Shown piece by piece: positions 22,986 to 39,908 of a stretch of 64,000 bases of DNA. The stretch covers positions 64,001 to 128,000 of the forward strand of contig OZ243956.1 in assembly GCA_965214405.1 (NCBI GenBank). The letters run 5' to 3'. How positions within the stretch are numbered: the first letter of the stretch is position 1; each line of letters opens with the position of its first letter. The stretch is from Trueperaceae bacterium (GTDB lineage: Bacteria > Deinococcota > Deinococci > Deinococcales > Trueperaceae). The position numbers and the translations under genes are program-made. The notes under the pieces are model-generated. The model ran no database searches. It had not been told where the DNA came from and worked only from the letters and a program-made list of their open reading frames with translations.

Positions 22986-23582
22986 TTAGTTGAGCTGCGT
23001 CTCGAGCGTGCGCGGTCCCGCCCTCTGTTTATCGACTGGGGGTCGCGCTTCGTCGGGGGTAATGATGGGAGCGAGAAGTGCGTGGACGGTCCTGAGCGCG
23101 TAGCTTTGCCTCTCGGGCAGCCATAAGAGGGGCAGGTCGGCCCCGCGAAAGGCGGCCTCGAGGCGCGCGCGCCGCTTTTCACTCGCTTGTTTATGTATCC
23201 CGGACGGGTGTTCGGACTCCAAATTGATGGCGCAAAGCACGGACAAGTCGCTCGCCCGGCAGACGACGTAGTCCACCTGACCCTGTAGAAGCCGCCGCGC
23301 ACGCCTCCCAAAGAGGCCGGGTCCGAGCTCTAAAACCTCGGCCACGCGCACCTTGCCGAAAATACGGTAGTTGCTCCCCAGGGCTTTGTCGAGCGCACCC
23401 AAAAGAGCACGTTCGGTGGGCGAAAAAAAGATCGTCCTCTGGACGCGTAGTCCCTTTGGCACCTTGGACGCTCTTGACAAGAGCGCCACAATACCGACGA
23501 CCAGAAGCAGGGCCACGACGAGCGCGGTGAGGAGCGCGGCGGGCAGAAAAAAGGAGGATTCGGCAAAGCGTGTAACGTCCAC
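22986..23582 (-). CDS. DUF2726 domain membrane-anchored protein
   Basis: N-terminal TM helix; FSPTERAL, IFGKVRVAEV, VDYVVC, AGLPLL-like motifs. Confidence 0.7.
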   Translation of the reverse strand: MDVTRFAESSFFLPAALLTALVVALLLVVGIVALLSRASKVPKGLRVQRTIFFSPTERALLGALDKALGSNYRIFGKVRVAEVLELGPGLFGRRARRLLQGQVDYVVCRASDLSVLCAINLESEHPSGIHKQASEKRRARLEAAFRGADLPLLWLPERQSYALRTVHALLAPIITPDEARPPVDKQRAGPRTLETQLN

Positions 23583-23866
23583 GGGAGTCCTTTCACGAAG
23601 AGAACGGAGCTGGCGTTAAGATGAAAGTTCTCTTAGAAAGAGTGTGCAACAGTCTCACGGTTTTGTCTGTGAGGAGTTAGCTGAGGCCTCCGTTCACGGC
23701 TTCACAAGCATGACTCACGCCTTGACCGTGCTAAGGTAGACGCCTACAAAAACTTGGAAGCTCCGTTACGGCTGGTTAACATGCTCGAGACCCCCTCACT
23801 ACCCTCTAATGCTCACACCACACCTGAGCAGAGCCTTCTTTGTGGCTCGTTTAAGTTGGCGGCCGC

Positions 23867-26800
23867 GTGAGCCGTACTCTTGGCAAGGCGCAACGGCTCA
23901 CCGAACTGCTCGAGCTTCTCAAGCTCAAAGCCTGGACGAGCCGCGAACTCGCGGAACGCTTCGGGGTGCCCATCCGCACGGTTCAGCGCGACCTAGACAC
24001 GTTACGCGAGAGCGGGCATGGGGTCGCAACCTCAGAGGATTTCCGCCACCGCCTCACGCCGACGGGTTCGTCGCTTAACGCCGTCGAAGGACTCGCAGTT
24101 CACGCGGCGGTAAGGCTCTTGTACCACCACTCACCTACCCAGAACCGGTATTACCGCTCGGCTTTGGAGAAGCTGGCGGCGCTGCTGCCCGAACCTGCCA
24201 GGGGAATCGCGGCGGCGAGTGCGCAAGACCTGAAAGTGCGCCCCGGTGACGACCGGACTTTGGAGTTGGTCGCGCGGGCCTGGTTCGAGGGCAAAGTTCT
24301 GCGGTTCAAGTACCTCGCCCCGGATAGTTTTGAACCTGCCTGGCGCGAGTTGGAAACATATCTGCTCGAGGTCAGCCGCACTAACTTGGCCCTTTACGCC
24401 ATCGGTCAGGAGCGCACGTTCAACCAGGTGCTCACCTTCAAATTGTCCCGTATGAGCGATGTTCGTGTTTCGGACGATGCCTACGCCATCCCTGAAAGCT
24501 TTGCGCCGAGCGAATACTTGAGCGCTGCTTGGGGCGTGATGGGTGGGCAAGGGGACAAGGTGGCTAAAGTGCGCTTGCGCTTTGAGCCCGAAGCCGCCTC
24601 CCGCATCAAAGAGGGCGGCTATCCCAATTTGAGGGTAGAGAGGGAACTAGCGGACGGCTCGCTCGAGGTCGAAATCAAAGCAGGCACCGACAACACGGGC
24701 TTTCCAAAAGAACTCCTCCCCTGGGTACAGAGCTGGGGGCCACGGGTCGATGTTCTTGCGCCCAAGGCGCTGCGCGAACGCTGGCTGAGCGAGGCCGGTG
24801 CCGTCGCGTTGAGGCACCCTCACTTAAAAACGAGGCTCGCGTCACTAGATGACGCACCCAAAGGACAGACTGAACCTATGACGAATCTTTCAGCGAAGGC
24901 GGCGGCCCTGTGGGCCAAGAGTGGTGAAGACGAGCAGGGCTATAGCCTCGTGGGACACTTGTTGGACGTGGCGGCGGTGGCGCACGCCCTGCTCGAGCGC
25001 GAACCCCCGCAGACCCTGCGGCTTTACGCGGAGGATGTGGGGCTCGAGCCCGGCGACGCTAAGAAATGGATAGCGGCACTGGCGGGCTTACACGACATCG
25101 GCAAGGCGACCCCGGCCTTTCAGCGGCAGTGGGAACCGGGACGGCTGGTGGTCGAGGCAGCGGGGCTTACGTTTAGCAAGGGCGACAAGGGCACCGCACA
25201 CGGAAAACTCTCGCAGAAAATCTTGCAAGACGAGCTCAAAATCTACGGTTTAGGTAAGAGGCTCGCCGCTCAAGTTGCCGACGCCGTAGGCGCACATCAC
25301 GGTCTGCGAACCGCGAAGGGCGACTTGTCAGACAACGTCGTTCCGCAACAAGACATGGGCAACAATGCGTGGCAAGAAACCCGGCAAGAGCTGCTAACCG
25401 AGTTTCTAAAGGCCGTAGAAGTCGTTCAAATCTCACCCCCGATCACCGCCGCACTCACGGGCCAGGGCTTTATCCGATTAGCAGGCTTGACCAGCTTTGC
25501 CGATTGGATTGGCTCGACAGTTGACTTTTTTCCTACCGACCGCAAAGTAGAGAATTTGAGAGAGCACTTTCTCGACTCGTTGCTAAGGGCGCGCAAGGCC
25601 CTGAACGCGATAGGCTGGGAGCGCCGCGAGCCTTTAGCGGCGGAACCTCGAGCCTTCAACACCATCTTTCCTTTTGAGCCCAACGGTCTTCAAAAGCAAA
25701 TCGTCAACCTTGTCGAGCAAACGCGTGAACCCTCTCTTCTCATCGTCGAAGCGCCGATGGGGGAAGGAAAAACGGAGGCTGCCTTCTACGCCCACGTCAC
25801 TTTGCAACGGCAGTTGGGGCACCGAGGCTTGTACGTGGCGCTGCCCACGCAGGCAACGGGTAACGCCATGTTTGAGCGCACCAAAAACCTTCTCAGCACC
25901 TTCGAGCGCGACACGCCACCCGACTTGCAGCTTTTACACGGCTCGAGCCTGCTCAACGACGCTTACGCCACCATCCAAATCAAGGATGTAGATGGAGTGG
26001 ACAACACAGAGAGCGAGGTGTGGGCCAGAACCTGGTTCACCAGCAAAAAGCGGGCGCTGCTTTCGGAAAACGGGGTGGGCACGGTTGACCAGGCGCTCCT
26101 CAGCGTTCTAAACATCAAACATCAATTTGTGCGCCTGTGGGGATTGGGTAACCGCACGGTTGTTTTGGATGAAGTCCACGCGTATGAGCTTTACACGAGC
26201 AAGCTCATTGAGCGCCTAGTCTGCTGGCTGCACGCGCTCGGCTCGTCGGTCATCATCATGAGCGCGACGCTGCCCACCGCCAAACGACTAGATTTAGTCA
26301 AAGCCTTTGGCGGCGGCGCGGCCGAGGAGCCCGTCTCTTACCCACGCATCACGCAGGTGCTGGGCGGAGAGACCAAGGAGGTTTCGTTCTCGGTGAGAGA
26401 GCAGAAGCCTATGAGCTTGAAAAGGGTCAGCCTAGATCTCGAGACGGTAGCAAACCTTCTCACAGGCTTGATGACGGACGGCGGTTGCTCGGTGGCTATT
26501 CTAAACACGGTGCAGCGGGCGCAAACTCTTTACAGCCTGTTTGGGGAGGGTGAAGGTCTTGAGGCCGGAAAGCGTTTACCCGACGGCACCGAGGTCTATC
26601 TGTTCCACGCCCGTTATCCGGCGGAGGAGCGGAAAAAGCGGGAGGAGGCGGTGCTGGGGAAGTTCGGCAAGGGCGGAGAGCGCCCAGCCAAGGCCATTCT
26701 CATCGCCACGCAGGTGGTTGAGCAGAGTTTAGACCTTGATTTTGACGTGATGGTGAGCGACTTAGCGCCCGTCGATTTGCTCTTGCAGCGTGCCGGACGG

Positions 26801-27556
26801 ATGCACCGCCACGAGCGCGAACGTCCCGCCGCCCACGCGTCGCCCGTCCTTTACGTGGCAGGGCTGACCGACGCCGAGACGCTACCGGATGTCAGCAGCG
26901 AATACTTCGATTGGGTTTACGAAGCGTTCACGCTTTACATGACGTGGTGGACCTTGGCTGATAAGGAAGTTATTGCGTTACCTGAAGACTTTGAGCCGCT
27001 TATCAAAGCCGTATACGGCGAAACCGATTTTACGGCGCTGCCGGATTTCGCCCGTGAGGTGGTTGAGCAAAGCCGCGCGGACCAGGAAGGAGAAGCCGAC
27101 ACCCACAAGCGAAAAGCTGTCAGCTCAGCTAACGTGATACCTCTGCCAAACATCTACCCGACCACCGACGGCGTCAGTTCGGTTGTCAAGAGCGAGGACG
27201 ACGAAGACCCCAGCCTTCACGAGCACTACCGGCCCGCGACGCGTCTGGGCGATCCCAGCGTCACGGTCATCCCCTTACATAAAAAGGATGACAAGCTTTA
27301 CCTCGAGCCCTCCTACGAAACCGAAATCGTGTTGAACAAGGAACCCTCATGGCAAGCGGCGAGAACCCTCTATCTGCAACACCTCAAGCTGAGCCGTAAA
27401 GGTCTTGTGTTCGAGCTTGTTAAATATCCAGTACCCGCTTGGCAGAAGCAACCGCTGCTGCGTTACTGCTTCCCGCTCACTTTTGAGGAGAGGGTGGCAG
27501 TGGTTGGGAAATTGACCCTTCGCTATGACGATGCGCTAGGGATTGTGTATGGGTAG
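23867..27556 (+). CDS. cas3: HTH-WYL-WCX regulator fused in frame to type I-E Cas3 (HD nuclease + SF2 helicase)
   Basis: aa 1-~320: ELAERFGVPIRTVQRDLDTL HTH, WYL core (LYAIG..TFKLSRM), WCX (VRLRF..WVQSWGPRVDVLAPKALRE). From M338: WAKS, HLLDV, LHDIGK, AHHG, ADWIGS, APMGEGKT, DEVH, SAT, QRAGRMHRH. Confidence 0.92.
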   Translation: MSRTLGKAQRLTELLELLKLKAWTSRELAERFGVPIRTVQRDLDTLRESGHGVATSEDFRHRLTPTGSSLNAVEGLAVHAAVRLLYHHSPTQNRYYRSALEKLAALLPEPARGIAAASAQDLKVRPGDDRTLELVARAWFEGKVLRFKYLAPDSFEPAWRELETYLLEVSRTNLALYAIGQERTFNQVLTFKLSRMSDVRVSDDAYAIPESFAPSEYLSAAWGVMGGQGDKVAKVRLRFEPEAASRIKEGGYPNLRVERELADGSLEVEIKAGTDNTGFPKELLPWVQSWGPRVDVLAPKALRERWLSEAGAVALRHPHLKTRLASLDDAPKGQTEPMTNLSAKAAALWAKSGEDEQGYSLVGHLLDVAAVAHALLEREPPQTLRLYAEDVGLEPGDAKKWIAALAGLHDIGKATPAFQRQWEPGRLVVEAAGLTFSKGDKGTAHGKLSQKILQDELKIYGLGKRLAAQVADAVGAHHGLRTAKGDLSDNVVPQQDMGNNAWQETRQELLTEFLKAVEVVQISPPITAALTGQGFIRLAGLTSFADWIGSTVDFFPTDRKVENLREHFLDSLLRARKALNAIGWERREPLAAEPRAFNTIFPFEPNGLQKQIVNLVEQTREPSLLIVEAPMGEGKTEAAFYAHVTLQRQLGHRGLYVALPTQATGNAMFERTKNLLSTFERDTPPDLQLLHGSSLLNDAYATIQIKDVDGVDNTESEVWARTWFTSKKRALLSENGVGTVDQALLSVLNIKHQFVRLWGLGNRTVVLDEVHAYELYTSKLIERLVCWLHALGSSVIIMSATLPTAKRLDLVKAFGGGAAEEPVSYPRITQVLGGETKEVSFSVREQKPMSLKRVSLDLETVANLLTGLMTDGGCSVAILNTVQRAQTLYSLFGEGEGLEAGKRLPDGTEVYLFHARYPAEERKKREEAVLGKFGKGGERPAKAILIATQVVEQSLDLDFDVMVSDLAPVDLLLQRAGRMHRHERERPAAHASPVLYVAGLTDAETLPDVSSEYFDWVYEAFTLYMTWWTLADKEVIALPEDFEPLIKAVYGETDFTALPDFAREVVEQSRADQEGEADTHKRKAVSSANVIPLPNIYPTTDGVSSVVKSEDDEDPSLHEHYRPATRLGDPSVTVIPLHKKDDKLYLEPSYETEIVLNKEPSWQAARTLYLQHLKLSRKGLVFELVKYPVPAWQKQPLLRYCFPLTFEERVAVVGKLTLRYDDALGIVYG
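24839..24871 (+). promoter_or_regulatory. Putative WYL-regulator site and internal promoter for cas3, inside the fusion linker
   Basis: Perfect palindrome GCGTCA-CTAGA-TGACGC, N10, CAGACT, then N6 and the in-frame ATG at 24878; near-identical copy upstream of cas8e. Confidence 0.6.
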
Positions 27557-27606
27557 CTTTACCCAGAAGCCTTGTTATGGTTGCTGTGCAAGCGCGGAAG
27601 TTAGCC

Positions 27607-27635
27607 TTGACTAACCTCCCTATTTCGACTACTAT
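27607..27635 (+). promoter_or_regulatory. Sigma70 promoter of the TA operon
   Basis: TTGACT-N17-TACTAT; SD GAGGA before GTG 27651. Confidence 0.65.
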
Positions 27636-27650
27636 GCTATCGAGGACGTA

Positions 27651-28010
27651 GTGAGCTCTACGCCGTACATCGTTTACGAGTACGAGGACGAAAATGGTTA
27701 CTCCGAGTTTCGGGAGTGGCGCAAGGCGCTTAGACGCTCCAATCCTAGAGCTTCTGCGAAAGTCGATTGGCTCATCGCGCTGCTCGAGGACAAAGGTACA
27801 ACACTGTCGTTTCCCTACGTCAGTCATATAGACGGGCCGATTTATGAACTGCGCGGTAAAACCGGACGTAACACCGTACGCATTTATTACTGGCAACAGG
27901 ACAAAGAGGTATTCATCGCCGCCGCGGGCGAGGTGAAGCAGCAGAACCAAGCTGACCGCAAGCTTATTAGGAAAGCTTTGGCAGCTTACGAGGAATATAA
28001 CAAGGAGTAA
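27651..28010 (+). CDS. RelE/HigB-like (Gp49-type) toxin
   Basis: GPIYELR...NTVRIYY motifs; toxin-first order before an XRE gene. Confidence 0.8.
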   Translation: MSSTPYIVYEYEDENGYSEFREWRKALRRSNPRASAKVDWLIALLEDKGTTLSFPYVSHIDGPIYELRGKTGRNTVRIYYWQQDKEVFIAAAGEVKQQNQADRKLIRKALAAYEEYNKE

Positions 28011-28014
28011 CGCC

Positions 28015-28410
28015 ATGCCAAAACGTCCCTTGAAACGAGCGAGCGACCTAAGCCAAGAGTTTTTGCAAGACCCCGGTTACGCTGCTCTATACCGTGAGGT
28101 CGCTAACGAAGAGATTGGAGCGGCGCTGCGCACAGTGCGCGAGGCTAAGGGGTTAAGCCAGCGTGAGGTTGCCGAGCGCATGGGCGTGACGCGTCCACGT
28201 GTGTCGCAGATTGAAAGTGTCGAGGGTACGGCGTTGGCGCTCGAGGTGCTCAGCCGCTACGCCCGCGCGGTAGGGTGCCGCCTCGACATCACTTTGAAAG
28301 ACGCCGAGACCAACCATGAGGTTGCTGCGCTGTTTGTACCAACGCTCGAGGCTACCGCGCCAAAACCGCCCGGCGCGGAGCCTTATGAAAAAGCAGAGGG
28401 GGTAGCCTGA
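28015..28410 (+). CDS. XRE-family HTH antitoxin (HigA-like)
   Basis: LRTVREAKGLSQREVAERMGVTRPRVSQIES HTH; 4 nt after the toxin stop. Confidence 0.85.
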   Translation: MPKRPLKRASDLSQEFLQDPGYAALYREVANEEIGAALRTVREAKGLSQREVAERMGVTRPRVSQIESVEGTALALEVLSRYARAVGCRLDITLKDAETNHEVAALFVPTLEATAPKPPGAEPYEKAEGVA

Positions 28411-28465
28411 AAGATAGTTCCGCACCACGTAGGCACAACGGTTATGGGTAGAATGAGTTTGAAAC

Positions 28466-28555
28466 ATTTTCCCTACACGCGTGGGGATGAACCTTAGTAA
28501 TTCCACCTGTGGACGTAATAGTGAATATCCTCCCCACACCAGTGGGGCTGCGGTT
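28466..28555 (+). ncRNA. CRISPR mini-array / crRNA-like regulatory RNA (two degenerate repeats + 32-nt spacer)
   Basis: psiR1 ATTTTCCCTACACGCGTGGGGATGAACCT (28466-28494), spacer TAGTAATTCCACCTGTGGACGTAATAGTGAAT (28495-28526), psiR2 ATCCTCCCCACACCAGTGGGGCTGCGGTT (28527-28555); same 29+32 period and hairpin as the main array. Confidence 0.88.
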
Positions 28556-28562
28556 GGTGGGT

Positions 28563-28623
28563 AAGTAGTAATTCCACCTGTGGATGTAAAGCCTTGACTC
28601 CGATACTGTCCCGTGTGTATAGT
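28563..28623 (+). promoter_or_regulatory. AAG PAM + partial protospacer overlapping a sigma70 promoter
   Basis: AAG 28563-28565; TAGTAATTCCACCTGTGGATGTAA (28566-28589) matches 23/24 of the spacer 5' part; TTGACT 28594-28599, N18, TATAGT 28618-28623. Confidence 0.82.
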
Positions 28624-28776
28624 GAAAAAGCGTGGCTGGGGCCTACCGCGAAATAGTCACCCCACCACGCCTCAAGGGACATGCCCTCTGAATCCGATTT
28701 TACCTTAGCTTTGGCACAAATTCAAAGGGCGTCCACTTTAACGTAGGGAGGTTTCCACCTCTCGGACGGGAGTAAC

Positions 28777-28962
28777 GTGTTAGACCTCGAGGACACCACC
28801 TACCAAGCGTTTAGGGACAGCCTGTATCAGGTTGACGAGCGAGACCGCGCCGTGCTGTGGGAGTTCTGGCCCCACTTTCAATCGGCTTTGAACTCTCGAC
28901 ATGGAGAGTGGCAGAAGCTGACGTTAACGGGCTCGCTCGATGACGACGATGTAGACCGTTAA
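28777..28962 (+). CDS. 61-aa acidic small protein, candidate CRISPR-repressed toxin
   Basis: GGGAG SD-like sequence before GTG; lies between the targeted promoter and a terminator; no family recognised. Confidence 0.5.
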   Translation: MLDLEDTTYQAFRDSLYQVDERDRAVLWEFWPHFQSALNSRHGEWQKLTLTGSLDDDDVDR

Positions 28963-28967
28963 CCGTG

Positions 28968-29001
28968 GTGAGGCGCATCCCGCGCCTCACTTCTTTATTT
29001 T
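28968..29001 (+). terminator. Rho-independent terminator
   Basis: GTGAGGCGC-ATCCC-GCGCCTCAC followed by TTCTTTATTTT. Confidence 0.85.
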
Positions 29002-29005
29002 GGCG

Positions 29006-29038
29006 ACGTCACTACATGACGCACCCCCCTCTTACACT
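29006..29038 (+). promoter_or_regulatory. Putative WYL-dependent promoter of the Cascade operon
   Basis: ACGTCA-CTACA-TGACGC, N10, TACACT; no canonical -35; SD AAAGGAGG before the cas8e ATG. Confidence 0.65.
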
Positions 29039-29058
29039 GCTTTTGAAAGGAGGCCGAG

Positions 29059-30555
29059 ATGTTTAACCTCATCCATGAACCTTGGCTGCGGGTCGAAAAC
29101 CCAGACGGCTCGCTAGGCCAGGACTCGCTAAAGGGGGTTTTATTAAACGCCCACCGCTACGCGCGGCTGGCCCACCCCTCCCCCGCCGTGCTCCCGGCGC
29201 TGCACCGCTTTCTACTGGCGGTGCTGTACCGGGTACTGGACGAACCACGCAGTACCGATGAAGGGGTTGATTTGTTCAAACAGGGTCGGTTTCCGGCGGA
29301 GCGCGTCGGTGCTTATCTCGAGCACTGGCAAGACCGCTTCGACCTGTTCCACCCTGAAAGGCCCTTTTACCAGGTGCCGGACTCGGAAGATAAGGTGTCA
29401 GGGGTCGCCCGGCTCGCAGCCGAACTCGCCAGCGGCACGAACAAACTCCTCTTCGACCACACCGCGGAGGCCGACCCGCCGGAGTTGACGCACGCCGAAA
29501 TCGCGCAACTGCTCGTGACCCGGCAGATGACCGCCATCCCCGAAGGCGCGGGCTACAGCCCCAGCCCGGCGGGCGGCGCGGCGTTCGTGCTGCCGCAGGG
29601 TCGCAACCTGTTCGAGACGCTGGTGCTCAACCTCGTTCCTTATTCTGAGGAGGAGAACGAGGACGACGCGCCCATTTGGGAAGGGGCTACGCCGAAGAGC
29701 GCGGCGGTAAAAGCCGCCAAGCCGCGCGGCTCGAGAGGGCTTACCGAACGTTACACCTGGCTAACGCGCATCGTTAAGTTGCAAGAACCCGAGGGTGACG
29801 CGCCTGTGTCGGCGCTGCATTATGCGGCAGGCATCAAGTTCGATGGCGGCGACAGCCCCGACCCCATGTTGGCTTACCGCAAAGATGAAAAGCGCGGGCT
29901 CCTCCCGGTATCTTTCAACAAGTACAAGGCGTTCTGGCGGGACTTTCAGGCCCTAATACCCAATCCCGACAGCGGAAGCTACTTAGCGCCCCAGACGGTA
30001 AAACACGCTCGCAACATATATGAAGAATTAGAGCGCACCGACCCCCTCACCTTACTGGTTTCCGGCCTGAGCAATGACAAGGCCAAGGTCGTGCTGTGGC
30101 GTACCGAACAGTTCAACGTGCCGCAGGTCCTCCTTCAAAATCCGGGGGCTTACGCCGAGTTGACGCGGCTGCTCGAGTACGCCGACAACGGCGGGCGCAC
30201 CCTCTACGGCGCGACGCAGCGCTTGGCGGAAAAGTTGCTGAGCATTGGCGAACGTAAACCCGACCCCGCCGACGTTCGCAACCTGGCCGCGAGTTTTCCC
30301 GCCAGTATGCACTACTGGAGCAGGCTCGAGACCCGCTTTCCCGAACTGCTGGAGCGCTTTGAGACTCAGACCTTTGATGAGCGGTTCAGTTGGTGGTTAG
30401 GGCAAATCACCCTTGTAACGCGCGAAGCCTGGGAGCTTGCCTTAAAGAGCGCCGGGGAAAACGAGCGCGCCTGGCGGGCCGGGGCCGAGGCGAGCAAGGT
30501 CATCAACACCCACCTCAAACGCCTGCGCGAACAGACAGCCGAGCCAGCCCCATAG
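29059..30555 (+). CDS. cas8e: Type I-E Cascade large subunit Cas8e (CasA/Cse1)
   Basis: FNLIHEPWL, LHRFLLAVL, DRFDLFHPERPFYQ, GRNLFETLVLN, DPM, AFWRDF. Confidence 0.93.
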   Translation: MFNLIHEPWLRVENPDGSLGQDSLKGVLLNAHRYARLAHPSPAVLPALHRFLLAVLYRVLDEPRSTDEGVDLFKQGRFPAERVGAYLEHWQDRFDLFHPERPFYQVPDSEDKVSGVARLAAELASGTNKLLFDHTAEADPPELTHAEIAQLLVTRQMTAIPEGAGYSPSPAGGAAFVLPQGRNLFETLVLNLVPYSEEENEDDAPIWEGATPKSAAVKAAKPRGSRGLTERYTWLTRIVKLQEPEGDAPVSALHYAAGIKFDGGDSPDPMLAYRKDEKRGLLPVSFNKYKAFWRDFQALIPNPDSGSYLAPQTVKHARNIYEELERTDPLTLLVSGLSNDKAKVVLWRTEQFNVPQVLLQNPGAYAELTRLLEYADNGGRTLYGATQRLAEKLLSIGERKPDPADVRNLAASFPASMHYWSRLETRFPELLERFETQTFDERFSWWLGQITLVTREAWELALKSAGENERAWRAGAEASKVINTHLKRLREQTAEPAP

Positions 30556-30563
30556 GAGGCATC

Positions 30564-31154
30564 ATGACAGAAACCGTGACAAACAGCACGACAAACACGC
30601 CCTCGAGCAAACAAGCAGATGTAGCCGAACGCTTCATCAGTCACCTGGACAAACTCAATCCAGCCAAAACGCCGGGAGCCAAGCGGCAACACTTAGCCGA
30701 GCTTAGAAAAAGTCTCAGCTTCGACTTAGGCACGCACGTTCCGGCCTTTCCTTATGTTGAGCCATTTGTAGCAACGCTGGACGAGAGGACAGGCTACTGG
30801 CGACGCGCTATGTTCTACCTCGTCGCGGGGCTCTACGCCTCTCATCCAGAGTCCGCCTCTCAGGGGGGTTTCGGCAAGGCGATGGCGGTTCTTAGTCACA
30901 GACGCGAGAGCGGGAGCCTGGAGAAACGTTTTCTCGCGCTCTTGGCTGCGGAAGAAGCAGGGCAGCTCGTCTACCACTTGCGCCAACTCGTCAGCCTGCT
31001 CAAGGCCGAGGGTGTCGGCCTAAACTACGCAACGCTGCTCCGCGACCTGTTCGGGTGGCAACACCAAGACCGCTATATTCAGCGCCGCTGGGCGGGGCAG
31101 TATTACGGCTTTACCTCCGATGCTCCCGACACCTCCGCCACAAAAGAAACCTAG
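30564..31154 (+). CDS. cse2: Type I-E small subunit Cas11 (CasB/Cse2)
   Basis: [52 protein letters not shown]. Confidence 0.92.
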
Positions 31155-31165
31155 AAAGGATTCCT

Positions 31166-32323
31166 ATGAAAGCACTTTTAGAAATTCACGCCCTACAAAA
31201 CTTCGCCCCCAGCAACTTGAACCGCGACGACACCGGCAGCCCCAAAGATTGCGAGTTCGGCGGCTACCGCCGCGCCCGCATCAGTTCGCAAAGCCTAAAG
31301 CGGGCCATGCGGACCTACGTTCGCGCCGAGAAGCTTCTTGAGGATGACGCGTTGGCTGTGCGTACCAAGCGCGTAACCGCCGAACTGGTTGGGCAACTTA
31401 AAAAGAAGGGTCGGGACGAGGCCGAAGCTGGCAAGGTGGTCGAACTCGCGTTGGCGGGCCTGTCGCTCAGCGTAGACGAGGGCAAGACGCAGTACCTTCT
31501 CTACCTTGGCAAGAGCGAAATTCGGGACATGGCGAACAGCATTGACGCGTATTGGGACGAACTACTCGAAGCTGTCCCCGCAGAGGATGACAAGAAAAAA
31601 TCAAAAAAGGACGCAAAGGGCAACGTTCCAAAAGACCTCGTTGCCGCTTTGGAAAAAAGCTTAGACGGCGGCAAAGCCGTGGACTTAGCCCTCTTCGGGC
31701 GGATGCTCGCCGACCTGCCCGAGAAAAATCGGGACGCCGCCTGTCAGGTGGCCCACGCCATCAGCACCAACGCGGTGCAACGCGAGTTCGACTTCTATAC
31801 CGCCGTCGACGACCTCAAGCCGGAGGACAACGCGGGCGCGGACATGCTCGGCACGGTTGAATTTAACAGCGCCTGCTATTACCGCTACATTGCGCTCGAC
31901 TTAGAGAAGCTAGCCGCCAACTTGCAGGGCGACGGTGAGCTTTTAGAAAAAGGTCTTAGGGCTTTTCTCGAGGCGAGCTACTTCGCCGCGCCCTCGGGCA
32001 AACAGAACAGCTTTGCGGCCCACAACCCGCCGGGTTTTTTTGCCGTGAGCGTGCGCGCTAATGCCGCGCCGCGCAACCTCGCCAACGCCTTTGAGAAGCC
32101 GGTGCACCCGGACCGGGAGCGGTCCCTTACCGAGGCCTCGGTAGCGCGTTTAGACGAGCAGTGGGCTGCTTTTGACAAGGCGCTCGGCACGAGCGACGCA
32201 AACGAGATTGCGGTGCTCAAGCTTACGGGAAACGTGGCGCACTTGGCGACGAACGTACGTGAGAGCCTAAAGGACGTCGTCACCTCGAGCGTCGCGGCAG
32301 CCCAACGTGCTGTGGGTGCGTAA
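31166..32323 (+). CDS. cas7: Type I-E backbone Cas7 (CasC/Cse4)
   Basis: [59 protein letters not shown]. Confidence 0.95.
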
Positions 32324-32988
32324 TGCCGACGCTTTTATTACGTCTCGCCGGACCCATGCAAGCCTGGGGCACGAGCAGCCGGTTCGAGCAGCGGGACACG
32401 CACCTAGAGCCCAGTAAAAGCGGGGTGGTAGGGCTCTTGGCCGCCGCTTTGGGGCGCGACCGCAGCGAGGACGTGAGCGACTTGGCGGCCCTCAAAATGG
32501 GTGTGCGGGTGGACAAAGAAGGCGTCTTAAAACGCGATTACCACACCGCGCAAGAGATTGTTCAGGCGGACGGTAAGCTGAACAGCAACCGGAACATGCG
32601 CAACTCGGTGAGCGAGCGCTTTTATTTGGCGGACGCGGTTTTTTTGGTCGGGCTCGAGCATCCTGATAAAGCCTTTCTGACCGCTACCCACCAAGCCCTC
32701 AAAACCCCCCGCTGGCCGCTCTTCTTGGGTCGTAAGTCTTTCGTGCCCAGCCCCGGCGTCTATCTGCCTGGTGGACTGAGGGACGAACACCTCGAGACGG
32801 CACTCACGACCTTTCCACCCCTTCATCCCGCAGCGTCGGAGCGCGCGACCCTACGCTTCGCCACTGAGGACTCGCAGGGCGCGCAACTCCGCGCCGACCA
32901 GCCGCTCGGCTCGTTTTCAGCGCGCAGTTTTGGACAGCGCCGCGTGCGCGTTGAAAGCCGCTCCAACCCCTTCAAGGACGCCACATGA
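32323..32988 (+). CDS. cas5: Type I-E Cas5 (CasD)
   Basis: LLLRLAGPMQAWG, PSKSGVVGLLAAALG, DYHT, YLADA, LFLGRKS. Confidence 0.95.
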   Translation: MPTLLLRLAGPMQAWGTSSRFEQRDTHLEPSKSGVVGLLAAALGRDRSEDVSDLAALKMGVRVDKEGVLKRDYHTAQEIVQADGKLNSNRNMRNSVSERFYLADAVFLVGLEHPDKAFLTATHQALKTPRWPLFLGRKSFVPSPGVYLPGGLRDEHLETALTTFPPLHPAASERATLRFATEDSQGAQLRADQPLGSFSARSFGQRRVRVESRSNPFKDAT

Positions 32989-33593
32989 GCCTCCACCTCT
33001 CCAAACTCACGCCGAACCTGCGCAGCGCCAAAGCCCGCCGCGACCTGCAAAACCCTTACGACCTGCACCGCACCCTGAGCCGGGGCGTGGCGCGGGAGGA
33101 TGAGCGGCTGTTGTGGCGGGTTGACGGAACGAACCAGCCCAGCATTTTGGTACAAACCCTTCACCAACCCGACTGGTCTTACCTCGTCGAGGATGTGCCC
33201 CCCGGTTACCTGAAGGAATCTCCGGCGTCCAAATCCGTAGACCTCGCTTTTGTAAAAGGTCAGACCCTGACGTTTCGCTTGAGGGCAAATCCTACGGTAA
33301 AACGGACGCTCTCGGGCAAGAAAAAGCGTCTGGCTCTTTACGAGGTGGAGGAGCAGCTTGGCTGGCTCCGGCGTAAGGCGGCGGGGGGCGGCTTTAACGT
33401 CTTGTCCGCCACCTCACTGGGTCAGGAAACGCTCGAGGCTAAGAGAAACGCTCAAACCGTGACGCTTCACGCCGTCACCTTTGAAGGGCGGTTGATTGTG
33501 GTGGACCCGCCAACGTTTTTGGCAACGCTCAAAACGGGCCTCGGCTCCGCCAAGGGCCTCGGCATGGGCTTACTTTCCATTGCGAGGGCCTGA
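32985..33593 (+). CDS. cas6e: Type I-E Cas6e (CasE/Cse3) crRNA processing nuclease
   Basis: YDLHRTL, FRLRANPT, Gly-rich loop GLGSAKGLGMGLL. Confidence 0.93.
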   Translation: MSLHLSKLTPNLRSAKARRDLQNPYDLHRTLSRGVAREDERLLWRVDGTNQPSILVQTLHQPDWSYLVEDVPPGYLKESPASKSVDLAFVKGQTLTFRLRANPTVKRTLSGKKKRLALYEVEEQLGWLRRKAAGGGFNVLSATSLGQETLEAKRNAQTVTLHAVTFEGRLIVVDPPTFLATLKTGLGSAKGLGMGLLSIARA

Positions 33594-33594
33594 C

Positions 33595-34578
33595 ATGGCA
33601 AGTCTACGCAACCTCCGCGAACTCCCCAAATTCCGCGACGGCCTTTCCTACCTCTACATCGAGCGCGGGCGCGTCGAACAGGACGCCAAGGCCATCGCCT
33701 GGTACGGCGAAGAAGGCAAGGTGAGCGTGCCCGCCGCCGCTTTGGGCGTGCTCATGCTCGGCCCCGGCACAAGCATCACCCACGAGGCGGTCAAGGCTCT
33801 GGCCGACAACGGCTGCTTAATCAACTGGGTGGGCGAGGCGGGCGTGCGCTTTTACGCGGGCGGCGCGGGCGAAACGAGGAGCAGCGCCAACCTCATGCGC
33901 CAAGCGGCGTGGTGGGCGGACCCCGGTAAACACCTTCAGGTGGTGCGGCGCATGTACACCATGCGCTTCGATGAGCGCTTGTCGCCCACGCTGACCCTCG
34001 AGCAAATCCGCGGCAAAGAGGGCGTGCGGGTGCGCACCGTCTACGCCCAGGCAAGCCGGGAGTGGGGTGTGCCCTGGCGCGGGCGCTCCTACCGCCGCGG
34101 GCGCTGGGGCGACGCCGACCCCGTCAACCGCGCGCTCTCCGCCGGGGCGGCTTGCCTTTACGGCGTCTGCCACACCGCCATCCTCTCGGCGGGCTACTCC
34201 CCCGCGCTCGGCTTCGTCCACACCGGCAAGCAGCTCTCGTTCGTTTACGATATTGCCGACCTCTACAAAACCGAGGTGCTCGTCCCCGCCGCCTTTAGGC
34301 TCGTGGCCGAATCCGAAGAAGGAATTGACAGCCGCGTCAGACATCATCTTAGAGACACAATGCGAGAGTCGAGGCTGCTCGAGCGCGTGGTCGACGACCT
34401 CCACAGCCTCTTCAGCAACGACGCCGGGAAGGGCGAACGCTTCGCCGCGGACGGCGCGGCGCCCGGTGAACTGTGGGACCCGGAGGGCAACGTGGCCGGG
34501 GGGGTGAGTTATGGTCGTGATGACGCTGGAGAAGGTGCCGACGAGTCTGCGTGGGGAGCTGAGCCGCTGGATGATTGA
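33595..34578 (+). CDS. cas1: Type I-E Cas1
   Basis: LMLGPGTSITHEA, WVGEAGVRFY, IRGKEG, SPALGFVH, SFVYDIADLYK. Confidence 0.95.
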   Translation: MASLRNLRELPKFRDGLSYLYIERGRVEQDAKAIAWYGEEGKVSVPAAALGVLMLGPGTSITHEAVKALADNGCLINWVGEAGVRFYAGGAGETRSSANLMRQAAWWADPGKHLQVVRRMYTMRFDERLSPTLTLEQIRGKEGVRVRTVYAQASREWGVPWRGRSYRRGRWGDADPVNRALSAGAACLYGVCHTAILSAGYSPALGFVHTGKQLSFVYDIADLYKTEVLVPAAFRLVAESEEGIDSRVRHHLRDTMRESRLLERVVDDLHSLFSNDAGKGERFAADGAAPGELWDPEGNVAGGVSYGRDDAGEGADESAWGAEPLDD

Positions 34579-34864
34579 GGTTTCTACGGGCGTGTTCGTC
34601 GGCAAACTGAGCGCCCTGGTGCGCGACCTGCTGTGGGAAAAGGTGAGCGAGAACAAACGCGCGGGGCGCTGCTGTCAGGTCTACCGCACCAACAATGAAC
34701 AGGGCTTCGCTATTCGGATGGTGGGCGATTCGGAAAGGAGCGTGATCGACTTAGACGGTGTACAATTGGTCGCGGTGAAAAACGCGACCTGGGAACGGAT
34801 GTTTGTCGAGTCTGCGGAGGACCATGACAACCCAACAGGAGACATAGAGGCCCCTGAAGCTTAG
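34511..34864 (+). CDS. cas2: Type I-E Cas2
   Basis: MVVMTLEKVPTSLRGELSRWMIEVSTGVFVG, NNEQGF, DLDGVQL. Confidence 0.93.
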   Translation: MVVMTLEKVPTSLRGELSRWMIEVSTGVFVGKLSALVRDLLWEKVSENKRAGRCCQVYRTNNEQGFAIRMVGDSERSVIDLDGVQLVAVKNATWERMFVESAEDHDNPTGDIEAPEA

Positions 34865-34884: not shown

Positions 34885-37800
34885 CTATTCCCCACGCAGG
34901 TGGGGATGAACCGGGCAGGTTCTGGGTAGCCTCCACCCAGCCCGCCTATTCCCCACGCAGGTGGGGATGAACCGGAGAAGCGCCCCCTTCCACCCGCCTC
35001 TTGAGCCTATTCCCCACGCAGGTGGGGATGAACCGTGCGTGCGCAGCGCCTCGATCTGGGGACGCTCCTATTCCCCACGCAGGTGGGGATGAACCGCGAC
35101 CCCGGCGAGCGCTCGAGCGCGCACATCACTATTCCCCACGCAGGTGGGGATGAACCGACGCCCGGATTTTCTCCCCTCTCCAGCGAGCCCTATTCCCCAC
35201 GCAGGTGGGGATGAACCGGAGCCTCTACACACGTGCATCGCCCGCTGCACTATTCCCCACGCAGGTGGGGATGAACCAGCGCCCGTCTTCACTTTTTTGC
35301 TTGAGGTCCCCTATTCCCCACGCAGGTGGGGATGAACCGGCGGTGCTTTTCGAGGGCTCGGACGTGGAGTGCTATTCCCCACGCAGGTGGGGATGAACCG
35401 TCCACGTCGCAGGCGCTGAGGGGCTGGCCGTCCTATTCCCCACGCAGGTGGGGATGAACCGGTGCCGGGGGAGACCTTGACGCGCTTGTCTCCCTATTCC
35501 CCACGCAGGTGGGGATGAACCGGGAGCGCTGGCACATCCCGCAAGCGGGCGTGGCTATTCCCCACGCAGGTGGGGATGAACCGCCATCAGCAAGTTCGGC
35601 GCGGGGGTGGGGGACCTATTCCCCACGCAGGTGGGGATGAACCGGTGTCGCGCTGCAAGCGGTAGCGTACGGTCACTATTCCCCACGCAGGTGGGGATGA
35701 ACCGTCATAAACAAACAAGTCATAGTTGACGATCAACTATTCCCCACGCAGGTGGGGATGAACCGTTCCTGCCCGACGAGTGGTTCCCTTACGCGGACTA
35801 TTCCCCACGCAGGTGGGGATGAACCGCCTCGAGCAGCCCCAACCACCAGAACTCCCCCTATTCCCCACGCAGGTGGGGATGAACCGCCGGGCGAGGCGGT
35901 CACGCTTAAATCAGGAGACTATTCCCCACGCAGGTGGGGATGAACCGGTAAACGCACCCAAATTGATGCCGACGACGCCCTATTCCCCACGCAGGTGGGG
36001 ATGAACCGTCGGCCTTGAAAAAGTCGATGACGCCCCCGCCTATTCCCCACGCAGGTGGGGATGAACCCACCTCGGCCAGTGCGTTTTGACTAGCTGAGGC
36101 CTATTCCCCACGCAGGTGGGGATGAACCGCCAACCGCTTCACCATCCACGTGATGGCCGCGCTATTCCCCACGCAGGTGGGGATGAACCGCCGTCCGCGT
36201 AGTCCCAGCTCTCCACCACCCCCTATTCCCCACGCAGGTGGGGATGAACCGGGCACCCGCTTTTCCTCCCCCGCGAAGACCGCCTATTCCCCACGCAGGT
36301 GGGGATGAACCGGGGTCGCCCGAACTGGACGACCCCTCCGCGATCTATTCCCCACGCAGGTGGGGATGAACCGGGGCAACCATGAAAAAGCGCGTCATCG
36401 GCGCGCTATTCCCCACGCAGGTGGGGATGAACCGGGTTTGGCTGAACTTTCTGGGGTGCGTGAGGACTATTCCCCACGCAGGTGGGGATGAACCGCAAGC
36501 CATCCTTATGCGGAATGTGAACAACCCCTATTCCCCACGCAGGTGGGGATGAACCGTCCACACTCACATGTACATCCCCCTGCCAACCCTATTCCCCACG
36601 CAGGTGGGGATGAACCGTGAGGGCGCGGCTTTCCAGCACGCCCGCCATACTATTCCCCACGCAGGTGGGGATGAACCGCCGCCACTTCCGCCTCTTGCCT
36701 CTTGAGGGCTCTATTCCCCACGCAGGTGGGGATGAACCGCGTCACGCCGCCCTCTCTCGTCACCAAGGTCACTATTCCCCACGCAGGTGGGGATGAACCG
36801 AACTTTGTCTCGCAAAGAACACAGTGATAACCTATTCCCCACGCAGGTGGGGATGAACCGCATGGACAACATTGACACGCAAGTACAGACTTCTATTCCC
36901 CACGCAGGTGGGGATGAACCGGCCATGCTAGACAAGGGTGCAACCGAGATACCTATTCCCCACGCAGGTGGGGATGAACCGAGCCGCCGCCGCCCGCGAA
37001 AGTGCTAATGACCCTATTCCCCACGCAGGTGGGGATGAACCGTCTCTTTAAGGCCTAGCGCGAAGAGGTCCGGCCTATTCCCCACGCAGGTGGGGATGAA
37101 CCGTAACCGTCGCTTGCTTGATAGTACGGGATACCCTATTCCCCACGCAGGTGGGGATGAACCGGTCACGGCGCTTTCGTATGAGTCTATTAACGCCTAT
37201 TCCCCACGCAGGTGGGGATGAACCGGTACTCCTCGACGCCCTAGCCCACGCTGGGGCCTATTCCCCACGCAGGTGGGGATGAACCGGCCCCTCCATCGCC
37301 GCCGCTAAGCGGTTCCCACTATTCCCCACGCAGGTGGGGATGAACCGTATCAGGCGCTCACTGGGTCCATAGAAGAACCTATTCCCCACGCAGGTGGGGA
37401 TGAACCGCTGTCGCACTGACATAAACTTTAGTAGTAGCCTATTCCCCACGCAGGTGGGGATGAACCGTTCAAACAGACTCTCGGTGTTTCTCTGTGACGC
37501 TATTCCCCACGCAGGTGGGGATGAACCGTTTTCGGGCGGGGTAGACAATGGCCATCCCGACTATTCCCCACGCAGGTGGGGATGAACCGGAGCGTTAAAT
37601 ACGACGAAACGGGAGAACCCCCTATTCCCCACGCAGGTGGGGATGAACCGCGATAAGTGAAGTGATAAGTGACCCAAAAAGACTATTCCCCACGCAGGTG
37701 GGGATGAACCGATACTACGCCCGGAAATTGAACGTGACGACCTCTATTCCCCACGCAGGTGGGGATGAACCGTAGAGGCCCTGAAGATTTCCTGTCAGCT

Positions 37801-39908
37801 TGTTCTATTCCCCACGCAGGTGGGGATGAACCGGAGGGCTCTTCGATGAGTGACGCGACGACTGACTATTCCCCACGCAGGTGGGGATGAACCGTGCTAA
37901 CAGTAGGGTGTCGTTCTGAGTCGGAACTATTCCCCACGCAGGTGGGGATGAACCAGGGTGCCGCCCGCGTCCGGCTCGCCGTCCCGCCTATTCCCCACGC
38001 AGGTGGGGATGAACCGCTCCTGGTAGTGCTCCTGGCTCTGCTGGGAGCCTATTCCCCACGCAGGTGGGGATGAACCGACGAGCCCTTGAAAGTTGATCAG
38101 GTTGTCCTCCTATTCCCCACGCAGGTGGGGATGAACCGGATGACGTACCACTCATCCACTTCACGCTTCCTATTCCCCACGCAGGTGGGGATGAACCGGT
38201 TACGAATGAGGCCGAGGTAGCCAGCGTGCTCTATTCCCCACGCAGGTGGGGATGAACCGCCCATGAACCGGGCGACGAGCTGCACGACTGGCTATTCCCC
38301 ACGCAGGTGGGGATGAACCGAACCGAGAAAAGAGCGGAGCCGCGCCTCAACCCTATTCCCCACGCAGGTGGGGATGAACCGGTGGACATTGTCGCCGCTG
38401 AACGGCGTCTGGTCTATTCCCCACGCAGGTGGGGATGAACCTAGCCCTGAGCGGCTTGCACTGCGCCGATGAGCTATTCCCCACGCAGGTGGGGATGAAC
38501 CGGCGCAGGAGATGCTGGCGAAACTTCCGCTCACTATTCCCCACGCAGGTGGGGATGAACCCATTACCAAAAAGCGCGCGTTGCCACCCAACCACTATTC
38601 CCCACGCAGGTGGGGATGAACCGCAGATGGGCGTCTCCGAAGAGCAGTTCGCCAACTATTCCCCACGCAGGTGGGGATGAACCGCCTGACAACACTTACC
38701 CACTGAGTCGGGTTCCTATTCCCCACGCAGGTGGGGATGAACCGTCCCTTAACGTTCAATCAGCAGCTTCACCCGCTATTCCCCACGCAGGTGGGGATGA
38801 ACCGCTTAGGCGTACGCACAATAGTGGCTATCTCTGCTATTCCCCACGCAGGTGGGGATGAACCGATTCTGGGTTCCGAGCTCGAAGACTGGCCTGCCTA
38901 TTCCCCACGCAGGTGGGGATGAACCGCATAAGACGGTGCTTGACGCTGTGAACATCACTATTCCCCACGCAGGTGGGGATGAACCGAGTAAAGCGGCGGC
39001 GTAGCGGGGGCGGTAGGCCTATTCCCCACGCAGGTGGGGATGAACCGCATGACAGGAGGGTGGGAAGACATCGCCCTGCCTATTCCCCACGCAGGTGGGG
39101 ATGAACCGCCTCCAAGGCAACTATGAAGCCATTGACCCCCTATTCCCCACGCAGGTGGGGATGAACCGCACCAATCCACAGGTGTGTTTAGCAAAAAACC
39201 TATTCCCCACGCAGGTGGGGATGAACCGATGGTGGGCGAGGAGTGGTCTCTGTAGATGCTCTATTCCCCACGCAGGTGGGGATGAACCGAGGTCGGCGCT
39301 GTAGGCCCTCGCGTACAGGTCCTATTCCCCACGCAGGTGGGGATGAACCGGTGGCCGCCGAGAGCCCGTCCGCCTCGAGCGCCTATTCCCCACGCAGGTG
39401 GGGATGAACCGCTGAAGTCGATCCCGAGAACTCCGGCAAGCTCCTATTCCCCACGCAGGTGGGGATGAACCGTTCGCCACCGACCAGGCGGGCGGCTCTA
39501 TGGCCTATTCCCCACGCAGGTGGGGATGAACCGTTCACCGTATGAGCCGCTACGATGCTTCCCGCCTATTCCCCACGCAGGTGGGGATGAACCGCGGGAC
39601 TCGGTGAAGATCGCTTCGTGATTCGCTATTCCCCACGCAGGTGGGGATGAACCGTGTGGGTTTTCGCTTTCTAAGAGTGGGTTTCCTATTCCCCACGCAG
39701 GTGGGGATGAACCGGATACCCTCGTCAAAGCGCCCCAGCTCATCCCCCACGCTCGACCTATTCCCCACGCAGGTGGGGATGAACCGGACGCTGTGGGGCT
39801 GTGGGGGATGTGCGAATCCTATTCCCCACGCAGGTGGGGATGAACCGCGTCACCTCGTCGTCGGTCGAAAAGATGAGCGCTATTCCCCACGCAGGTGGGG
39901 ATGAACCG
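34885..39908 (+). CRISPR. Type I-E CRISPR array, 83 repeats / 82 spacers
   Basis: 29-nt repeat CTATTCCCCACGCAGGTGGGGATGAACCG; counted by hand: 63 spacers of 32 nt, 18 of 31 nt, one of 43 nt; orientation from similarity to the I-E 3' handle ATGAACCG. Confidence 0.98.

Follow-up and report, generated by a model that had tools for sequence, protein, structure and literature searches.

Why should a pair of degenerate CRISPR repeats with a lone spacer lie between cas3 and cas8e, and would the RNA made from it act upon the promoter beside it? This question is raised by the type I-E locus of a Trueperaceae bacterium, which is complete within the window (the whole 64-kb stretch of DNA that was analysed) and lies on the + strand, with the Cascade genes, cas6e and cas3 all intact as judged by Pfam (Table 1). 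The two-repeat degenerate mini-array is found at 28466-28555, in the same orientation as the main array, inside the 648 nt that separate the HTH_3 antitoxin-like ORF from cas8e. A preliminary description had read it as a guide of the CreA/CreR kind, and the positions that it reported for mini-array and target were confirmed throughout; sequence comparison supports the reading itself as well, with a handle kept in psiR1 and a hairpin in psiR2, a canonical PAM, an intact seed and covariation of guide with target. It is very probable that the element is a CreR-type regulatory mini-array of the type I-E system, in other words the gene of a crRNA-like RNA. The class of element is already published, including I-E loci with AAG-PAM mini-arrays between cas3 and cas8, and what is particular to this locus is that the predicted target promoter first drives an orphan 61-aa ORF closed by a terminator, and then cas8e.

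Table 1. Features of the type I-E locus and its mini-array, in positions of the window
Feature	Position	Strand	Description
cas3	23867..27556	+	1229 aa; Pfam Cas3_HD, Cas3-like_C_2, Cas3_C, WYL, WCX, HTH_11
TA-like pair	27651-28010, 28015-28410	+	Gp49/HigB-like ORF, then HTH_3 antitoxin-like ORF (Pfam)
Conserved block upstream of psiR1	28411..28465	+	-10-like TAGAAT at 28449-28454; near-identical to G032 up to 28454
psiR1, degenerate repeat	28466..28494	+	22/29 identical to array repeat; hairpin and 5'-handle kept
psiS, spacer-like guide	28495..28526	+	32 nt, by sequence match
psiR2, degenerate repeat	28527..28555	+	17/29 identical to array repeat; exact hairpin motif
Predicted mature crRNA-like RNA	28487..28547	+	61 nt: 8-nt handle, 32-nt guide, 21 nt of psiR2 to hairpin base
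AAG PAM	28563..28565	+	Read from sequence
Target site	28566..28597	+	Guide positions 1-24 (28566-28589) match 23/24; 25-32 unmatched
Sigma-70-like promoter, candidate repression target	28594..28623	+	TTGACT-N18-TATAGT, 10/12 to consensus
ORF61	28777..28962	+	61 aa; small acidic three-helix protein (predicted), first gene behind targeted promoter
Intrinsic-terminator-like hairpin	28967..29002	+	10 pairs (7 G-C), T-rich tail; between ORF61 and cas8e
cas8e (29059-30555), cse2, cas7, cas5, cas6e, cas1, cas2	29059..34864	+	Type I-E (Pfam)
Main CRISPR array	34885..39908	+	83 repeats, 82 spacers

The two repeats have decayed in different ways. The hairpin of psiR1 is intact with one G-U pair, and its handle is kept at 7 of 8 positions with the last base a T rather than a G, such that the earlier claim of a retained hairpin holds whilst that of a full 8-nt handle is one base too generous. 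Within psiR2 the hairpin alone is intact, as had been described, and the handle portion is lost. A search for the hairpin motif across the window, with up to one mismatch allowed, gives 85 occurrences, all on the + strand, which are the 83 array repeats plus psiR1 and psiR2, against a mean of 0.39 matches in shuffled sequence. The psi hairpins begin at 28471 and 28532, the 61 nt between them being exactly one array period, and so the description of two degenerate repeats flanking a 32-nt spacer is borne out. Both hairpins are present in the MFE and centroid structures of the predicted RNA fold of 28456-28562, the energy of that fold is not unusual when compared to shuffles (overall z-score 0.14). 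This is not a canonical array, the repeats being only 22/29 and 17/29 identical to those of the main array and the lone spacer finding its match within the same locus, 71 nt away.

The position at which Cas6e cleaves within I-E repeats is known, and from it a mature RNA of 61 nt may be deduced for the mini-array. A possible promoter for its transcription is the block at 28411-28454, which has a -10-like hexamer and no good -35, and the TAGAAT at 28449-28454 was not reported by the promoter scan. No Rfam family was matched in 27400-29300, and a search of a phage collection for mimics of the mini-array gave no match.

The target of the guide is found a short distance downstream and on the same strand. 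As first described, an AAG is followed by a match at guide positions 1-19 and 21-24, with positions 25-32 all mismatched; the seed is thus intact, position 20 is the lone mismatch within the first 24, and the longest possible R-loop, as read from the two sequences, is 24 bp. The guide begins exactly after the handle and the target begins exactly after the AAG, with 0.00 such guide-target matches expected from shuffles. The first 18 nt of the spacer occur at only these two sites in the whole 4.5-Mb genome when up to 2 mismatches are allowed, and the target is the only site with both AAG and seed in 23501-29200. Of the 82 spacers in the array, not one matches the same genome over more than 22 nt outside the array, against the 24-nt match of the psi spacer. 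The psi spacer itself is preceded by CCT, a flank that was correctly noted before. The match stops 4 nt short of the -35 hexamer (TTGACT, 28594-28599; the -10 is TATAGT, 28618-28623) and the 32-nt footprint overlaps it by 4 nt, which agrees with the original report of a footprint reaching the -35 of TTGACT-N18-TATAGT.

Transcription across psiR1, psiS and psiR2 would start from the 28411-28454 block, or would arrive by read-through from the TA pair upstream. Cas6e would cut at the base of each hairpin, and the resulting RNA of ~61 nt (28487-28547) would be loaded into Cascade. The complex would then recognise the AAG at 28563-28565 and pair with the template strand over up to 24 bp (28566-28589). 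As the eight PAM-distal positions would be left unpaired, the R-loop is predicted to stay below the length required for locking and Cas3 recruitment, with Cascade remaining bound without cutting and occluding the -35. ORF61 would thus be repressed and, most likely via read-through of the terminator (28967-29002), so would the cas8e-cas6e operon, the result of which would be that Cascade exerts negative feedback on its own synthesis. Repression might be relieved when crRNAs titrate Cascade or when anti-CRISPRs block it, in the manner demonstrated for CreR in other systems.

The expectation that binding occurs without cutting is borrowed from the I-E Cascade of Streptococcus thermophilus, for which the parts of PMC6859484 on R-loop formation report that at least 6 PAM-distal mismatches abolish R-loop locking, that locking and cleavage by Cas3 call for no less than 28 bp of R-loop, and that guides which have been shortened give neither locking nor Cas3 cleavage. 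If the threshold of S. thermophilus Cascade applies, the 24-bp R-loop should bind without cutting as it falls short of 28 bp, and the same should be true of the 20-nt guides found in relatives of this locus.

The closest described parallel in sequence organisation comes from Salmonella enterica, where the main account of the I-E CreR (10.1101/2023.03.10.532045) describes a mini-CRISPR of two degenerate repeats, placed upstream of the Cascade operon, that uses an AAG PAM and 15 nt of pairing to repress PcasA 8.6-fold. As in that account, psiR1 retains nucleotides of the 5'-handle and psiR2 retains the 3' hairpin, and an AAG is followed by a partial, seed-anchored match beside a predicted cas promoter, from which no cleavage would be expected. 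There are also differences. The pairing of 24 bp is longer than the 15 consecutive nt of Salmonella and than the cases set out in the published accounts drawn on here, and the host belongs to the Trueperaceae (Deinococcota) and not to the Enterobacteriaceae, with the element known in this host from sequence alone. Unlike in Salmonella, the 61-aa ORF and terminator stand between the targeted promoter and cas8e, and cas3 is followed by a TA pair before the mini-array begins.

Mini-arrays of this sort are also not rare. According to the main account of Shmakov et al. (10.1101/2023.03.03.530964) ~19% of the I-E loci of bacteria have them, for the most part in the interval from cas3 to cas8, with AAG-flanked targets at the cas8 promoter, an enrichment of TA genes and cargo genes that are under mini-array control. 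The locus described here resembles that description in its long cas3-cas8 intergenic region of an I-E system with TA genes nearby, in its AAG target downstream at the cas8 promoter and in the variable cargo genes that lie downstream. It departs from the cargo examples given there, which are mainly from I-D loci, in that an orphan small ORF is found in an I-E locus. The terms 'Deinococ' and 'Thermus' have 0 occurrences in the main texts of 10.1101/2023.03.10.532045 and 10.1101/2023.03.03.530964, the supplements of which may list some such loci. CreR, CreTA and CrePA are treated as established in the relevant parts of a preprint (10.1101/2024.10.29.618823) and a review (PMC12737573).

The only close homologue of the whole locus that was found is in G032, a Trueperaceae MAG from another genus of the same family; a scan of genome contigs with Cas8e returned only G032 and a 37%-identical locus from Caldilineaceae. 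The gene order in G032 is the same (cas3, TA pair, mini-array, ORF61, terminator, cas8e) and the genes are 81-95% identical at the nucleotide level. The intergenic DNA has changed a great deal, in a BLAST comparison ~290 nt from spacer to leader did not align, with alignment limited to 86 nt up to psiR1 and to ORF61 onward, and a global alignment also found the middle part to be poorly conserved. Despite this psiR1 is kept, with one stem pair changed from U-G to G-U and a loop that is 1 nt shorter, and the psiR2 hairpin, the AAG and the TTGACT directly after the target are all kept. The guide of G032 is ~25 nt long and differs in its letters from that of the window, and the target in G032 matches the G032 guide at positions 1-5, 7-10, 12-15, 18-20 and 23-25. 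As the guide and target of one genome resemble each other more closely than the two guides or the two targets do, the comparison indicates that the two have changed together. A check for such covariation, which the preliminary description had put forward, is therefore positive in G032, and it is also positive at the family level in 8 further Deinococcales loci.

The TA-like pair is kept in G032 as well, with 95% and 90% nucleotide identity, and is missing from the other Deinococcales loci of this comparison, where the mini-array begins directly after cas3. The last 9 bases of cas3 (27545-27556 region, including the stop codon) are repeated just before the -10-like hexamer (28440-28454). Because of this repeat, and because the mini-array follows cas3 directly in those other loci, the TA pair would seem to have been inserted there at a later time. 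In the window cas3 itself carries an N-terminal HTH_11-WYL-WCX module of ~320 aa (23867-24900) fused to the Cas3 HD-helicase body, which is a ligand-sensing, regulator-type domain carried by the nuclease itself.

Across the order cas8e was found in 105 of 363 genomes. The 30 best-scoring of these 105 cas8e loci, a choice that favours one family, were scanned for repeat-like hairpins in the 1.5 kb that precede cas8e, and among these best 30 there were 8 with clear pairs of psi-repeats; the remaining 22 had only G+C-rich, chance-like matches and were set aside by eye. Partner sites were then sought with no more than 1 mismatch over guide positions 1-5 and 7-11 and with no PAM condition. A seed-matched partner site is present in all ten loci (the 8, the window and G032) and an AAG precedes the site in ten of ten. 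Five of them (L029, L030, L031, L037 and L051) have the site 72-84 nt downstream, on the same strand, with its end at a consensus TTGACA-N17 promoter, and three Thermus-like loci (L045, L049 and L056) have it shortly after psiR2 and on the opposite strand. The first unit of the main array of another genome, G030, had appeared in BLAST to resemble the psi unit, this was put down to chance, its spacer having no AAG-flanked target and cas3 abutting cas8e in that genome.

Guide positions 6 and 12 are those which Cascade flips out and leaves unpaired. Mismatches between guide and target are found at position 6 in 7 of the 10 loci and at position 12 in 8 of the 10, compared to 13 of 50 at positions 13-17 (Fisher p = 3e-4), with these counts and the p-value overstating independence as these 10 loci are themselves related. 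Positions 1-5 and 7-11 are fixed by the rule of the seed search and say nothing of the mismatch pattern, hence an initial contrast of 15/20 against 20/150, which was biased by that rule, was replaced by the comparison with positions 13-17. As far as the sequences go, the mismatches at 6 and 12 fit the way in which Cascade pairs. The length of the guide varies as well, from 32 nt (the window and L030) to ~25-26 nt (G032) and 20 nt (L029, L031, L037 and L051), and these steps of ~6 nt match the loss of one Cas7 for every 6 nt, one Cas7 per 6 nt of guide being the arrangement given in the parts of PMC6859484 on complex architecture.

Behind the targeted promoter come a leader of ~150 nt, ORF61, a terminator-like hairpin and then cas8e. 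The existence of an adjacent promoter had been rightly recognised, what the first account had missed is that it is not directly before cas8e, with the 61-aa ORF and a strong terminator intervening. ORF61 starts with GTG, has a GGGAG Shine-Dalgarno 4 nt upstream and differs from its G032 orthologue by 17 synonymous and 11 non-synonymous codon changes in 60 codons, and on the strength of this ratio it has the look of a genuine gene. There are four known variants, in the alignment of which 37 columns are invariant, and an AlphaFold2 model consists of three helices with a mean pLDDT of 76.6. There is no Pfam family for it at E <= 10 and no NCBIfam family, no membrane segment, KilA-N or other toxin-like feature is seen in it, and Foldseek found no neighbour in PDB or BFVD at E <= 0.001. 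A DndF-like match from PADLOC was disregarded as weak (E = 0.003). Relatives are very scarce, with only 2 among 5.8 billion clusters, one true 50% cluster among 1.84 billion representatives in a profile search, and matches in only 2 of the order's 362 other genomes, one of them weak (E = 0.003); two scans of metagenomes, for which the alignments of Cas8e and of ORF61 served as queries, found no homologues.

Contigs from 4 sequencing runs contained the window sequence, a G032-like contig (with 366 other letters in place of 343 nt) and a third variant of ORF61, the upstream part of which is unlike that of the window. The start of the gene varies between these sequences: the G032 orthologue (L027:3222-3401) has CTG at the position of the GTG and no in-frame ATG, GTG or TTG after the preceding stop, and the third variant (run X1) has an ATG start behind an AAAGGAG Shine-Dalgarno. 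The ~150-nt leader is poorly conserved with respect to G032, it includes a 21-codon ORF in which nothing CreT-like was found.

The stretch from the terminator to cas8e is conserved in a quite different manner. The gene begins 57 nt past the terminator, and the promoter scan found no + strand promoter between the two and no other promoter before cas8e. Over 28963-29058 (the ~95 nt that begin with the terminator and run up to the ATG of cas8e) there are only 2 differences from G032, where in the same comparison ORF61 is 81% and cas8e 89% identical at the nucleotide level. This stretch is under tighter constraint than the coding sequences on either side, and it may hold an attenuator or other RNA element. 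Conservation of the junction suggests a shared ORF61-cas8e transcript with regulated read-through, and on this arrangement of the sequence any control of cas8e-cas6e by the guide depends on read-through of the strong terminator after ORF61.

CreR is told apart from CreA by the lack of a coupled toxin gene. The presence of a self-contained gene directly behind the targeted promoter allows for another explanation, in which the guide is the antitoxin half of a CRISPR-guarding module that follows the logic of CreTA and CrePA. Cascade and the guide would keep ORF61 off, ORF61 would be a harmful or abortive-infection protein that is freed when Cascade is lost or is blocked by an anti-CRISPR, and autoregulation of cas would be secondary or absent. 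The proposed arrangement at this locus is indeed like that of CreTA and CrePA as they are outlined in the published accounts, in that a crRNA-like guide acts with Cascade on a strong promoter inside a cas locus which drives a small self-contained gene. ORF61 forms a unit of its own: a near-consensus promoter and a separate Shine-Dalgarno precede it, a strong terminator follows its stop codon at once, it is an orphan in the databases and it is under purifying selection, as the codon changes above indicate. Cascade-repressed protein toxins do exist, CrePA being the example given in the part of PMC12737573 concerned with such modules.

The same explanation could also draw on the neighbouring genomes, as in five other loci this slot is filled by small ORFs of another family, in the manner of swappable mini-array cargo. 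These are the Truepera- or Meiothermus-like loci L029, L030, L031, L037 and L051, in which proteins of ~58-67 aa that are acidic and have an invariant W-D near the C-terminus are encoded directly upstream of cas8e (L029:1259-1432 and counterparts). The family has no Pfam or NCBIfam match and no detectable homology to ORF61 (hhalign probability 2%). Members occur in 5 of the 363 genomes of the order, and the family makes up 14 clusters overall, all of which are hypothetical or nameless, and one member has been named by NCBI from Truepera radiovictrix.

Several features count against a guarding module. ORF61 has none of the features of a toxin, being an acidic and helical protein with no Pfam or NCBIfam domain and no membrane segment; in the accounts of these modules the toxin is either an RNA (CreT) or a protein with a KilA-N domain (CreP), and ORF61 is like neither. 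Those accounts describe CreTA and CrePA for I-B and I-F systems and the locus of the window is I-E. No second promoter was found for cas8e, the almost invariant ~95 nt between the terminator and its ATG point to a transcript shared with ORF61, and the loci with the other small-ORF family mostly have no terminator before cas8e. A guarding module is therefore unlikely. When ORF61 is considered by itself, either as toxin-like cargo after the logic of CrePA or as the first cistron of the Cascade operon, the toxin-like option may be placed somewhere between unlikely and doubtful. It may be suggested, if doubtfully, that the slot between a guide-repressed promoter and cas8e in Deinococcales I-E loci holds interchangeable small, acidic, helical proteins that are new Cascade-controlled accessory factors, represented by ORF61 in the window and G032 and by the unrelated ~58-aa family in the Truepera- and Meiothermus-like loci. 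Such proteins could be released upon titration or inhibition of Cascade and could act as non-KilA-N toxins, as abortive-infection effectors or as modulators of Cascade or Cas3. If this were true the slot would be an I-E counterpart of CreTA and CrePA with new effector proteins.

It could also be argued that the element has no regulatory role at all and is a relic, made up of the decayed end of an old array and a chance local duplication of 24 bp. There are observations to this effect: an identity of 23/24 with an abrupt end resembles a recent duplication, and the fold energy is no better than that of shuffles. In addition, positions 6, 12 and 18 are all matched in the guide-target pair of the window, and as they match across a pairing as long as 24 bp this particular pair looks like the product of a recent duplication or conversion rather than one that has long been maintained. 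Yet the duplicated sequence starts exactly at the junction of handle and guide and exactly after an AAG, and the same architecture in different letters is found in G032 despite intergenic DNA that lies beyond BLAST alignment. The retention of AAG in ten of ten loci, of mismatches at positions 6 and 12 that fit Cascade pairing, and of a target placed beside the -35 make a relic highly improbable.

That the two 24-bp direct repeats are operators of a protein regulator, either the Cas3-fused HTH-WYL or the HTH antitoxin, with hairpins that are incidental, is hardly credible, for although two HTH proteins are encoded immediately upstream and direct repeats near a -35 are typical of operators, this leaves the 61-nt spacing of the hairpins, the kept 5' handle, the AAG and the mismatches at every sixth position in relatives unexplained, and relatives without the TA pair still keep both mini-array and target.

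With a CreR-type mini-array as the preferred reading, the locus adds a well-supported Deinococcota example of crRNA-guided self-regulation to a class demonstrated so far in enterobacterial I-E, haloarchaeal I-B and V-A systems, the general principle itself not being new. The comparison of 10 loci provides a signature of Cascade pairing, in which the AAG is always kept, positions 6 and 12 are free to vary and the guide changes in length by steps of ~6 nt, and this could help to recognise such elements elsewhere. The locus also draws attention to two uncharacterised families of small proteins under proposed guide control.

In the five relatives with the second small-ORF family a conserved leader hairpin with a near-invariant loop (L029:1190-1262, L030:3143-3220(-), L031:3149-3221(-), L037:3133-3205(-) and L051:3173-3245(-)) sits between the targeted promoter and the small ORF, with compensatory changes at 4 of its 18 predicted pairs, no clear counterpart of it was seen in the leader of the window. 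Within the main array of the window 5 of the 83 repeats differ solely in the last base, which is A in two, C in two and T in one where the others have G, and one spacer is 43 nt long.
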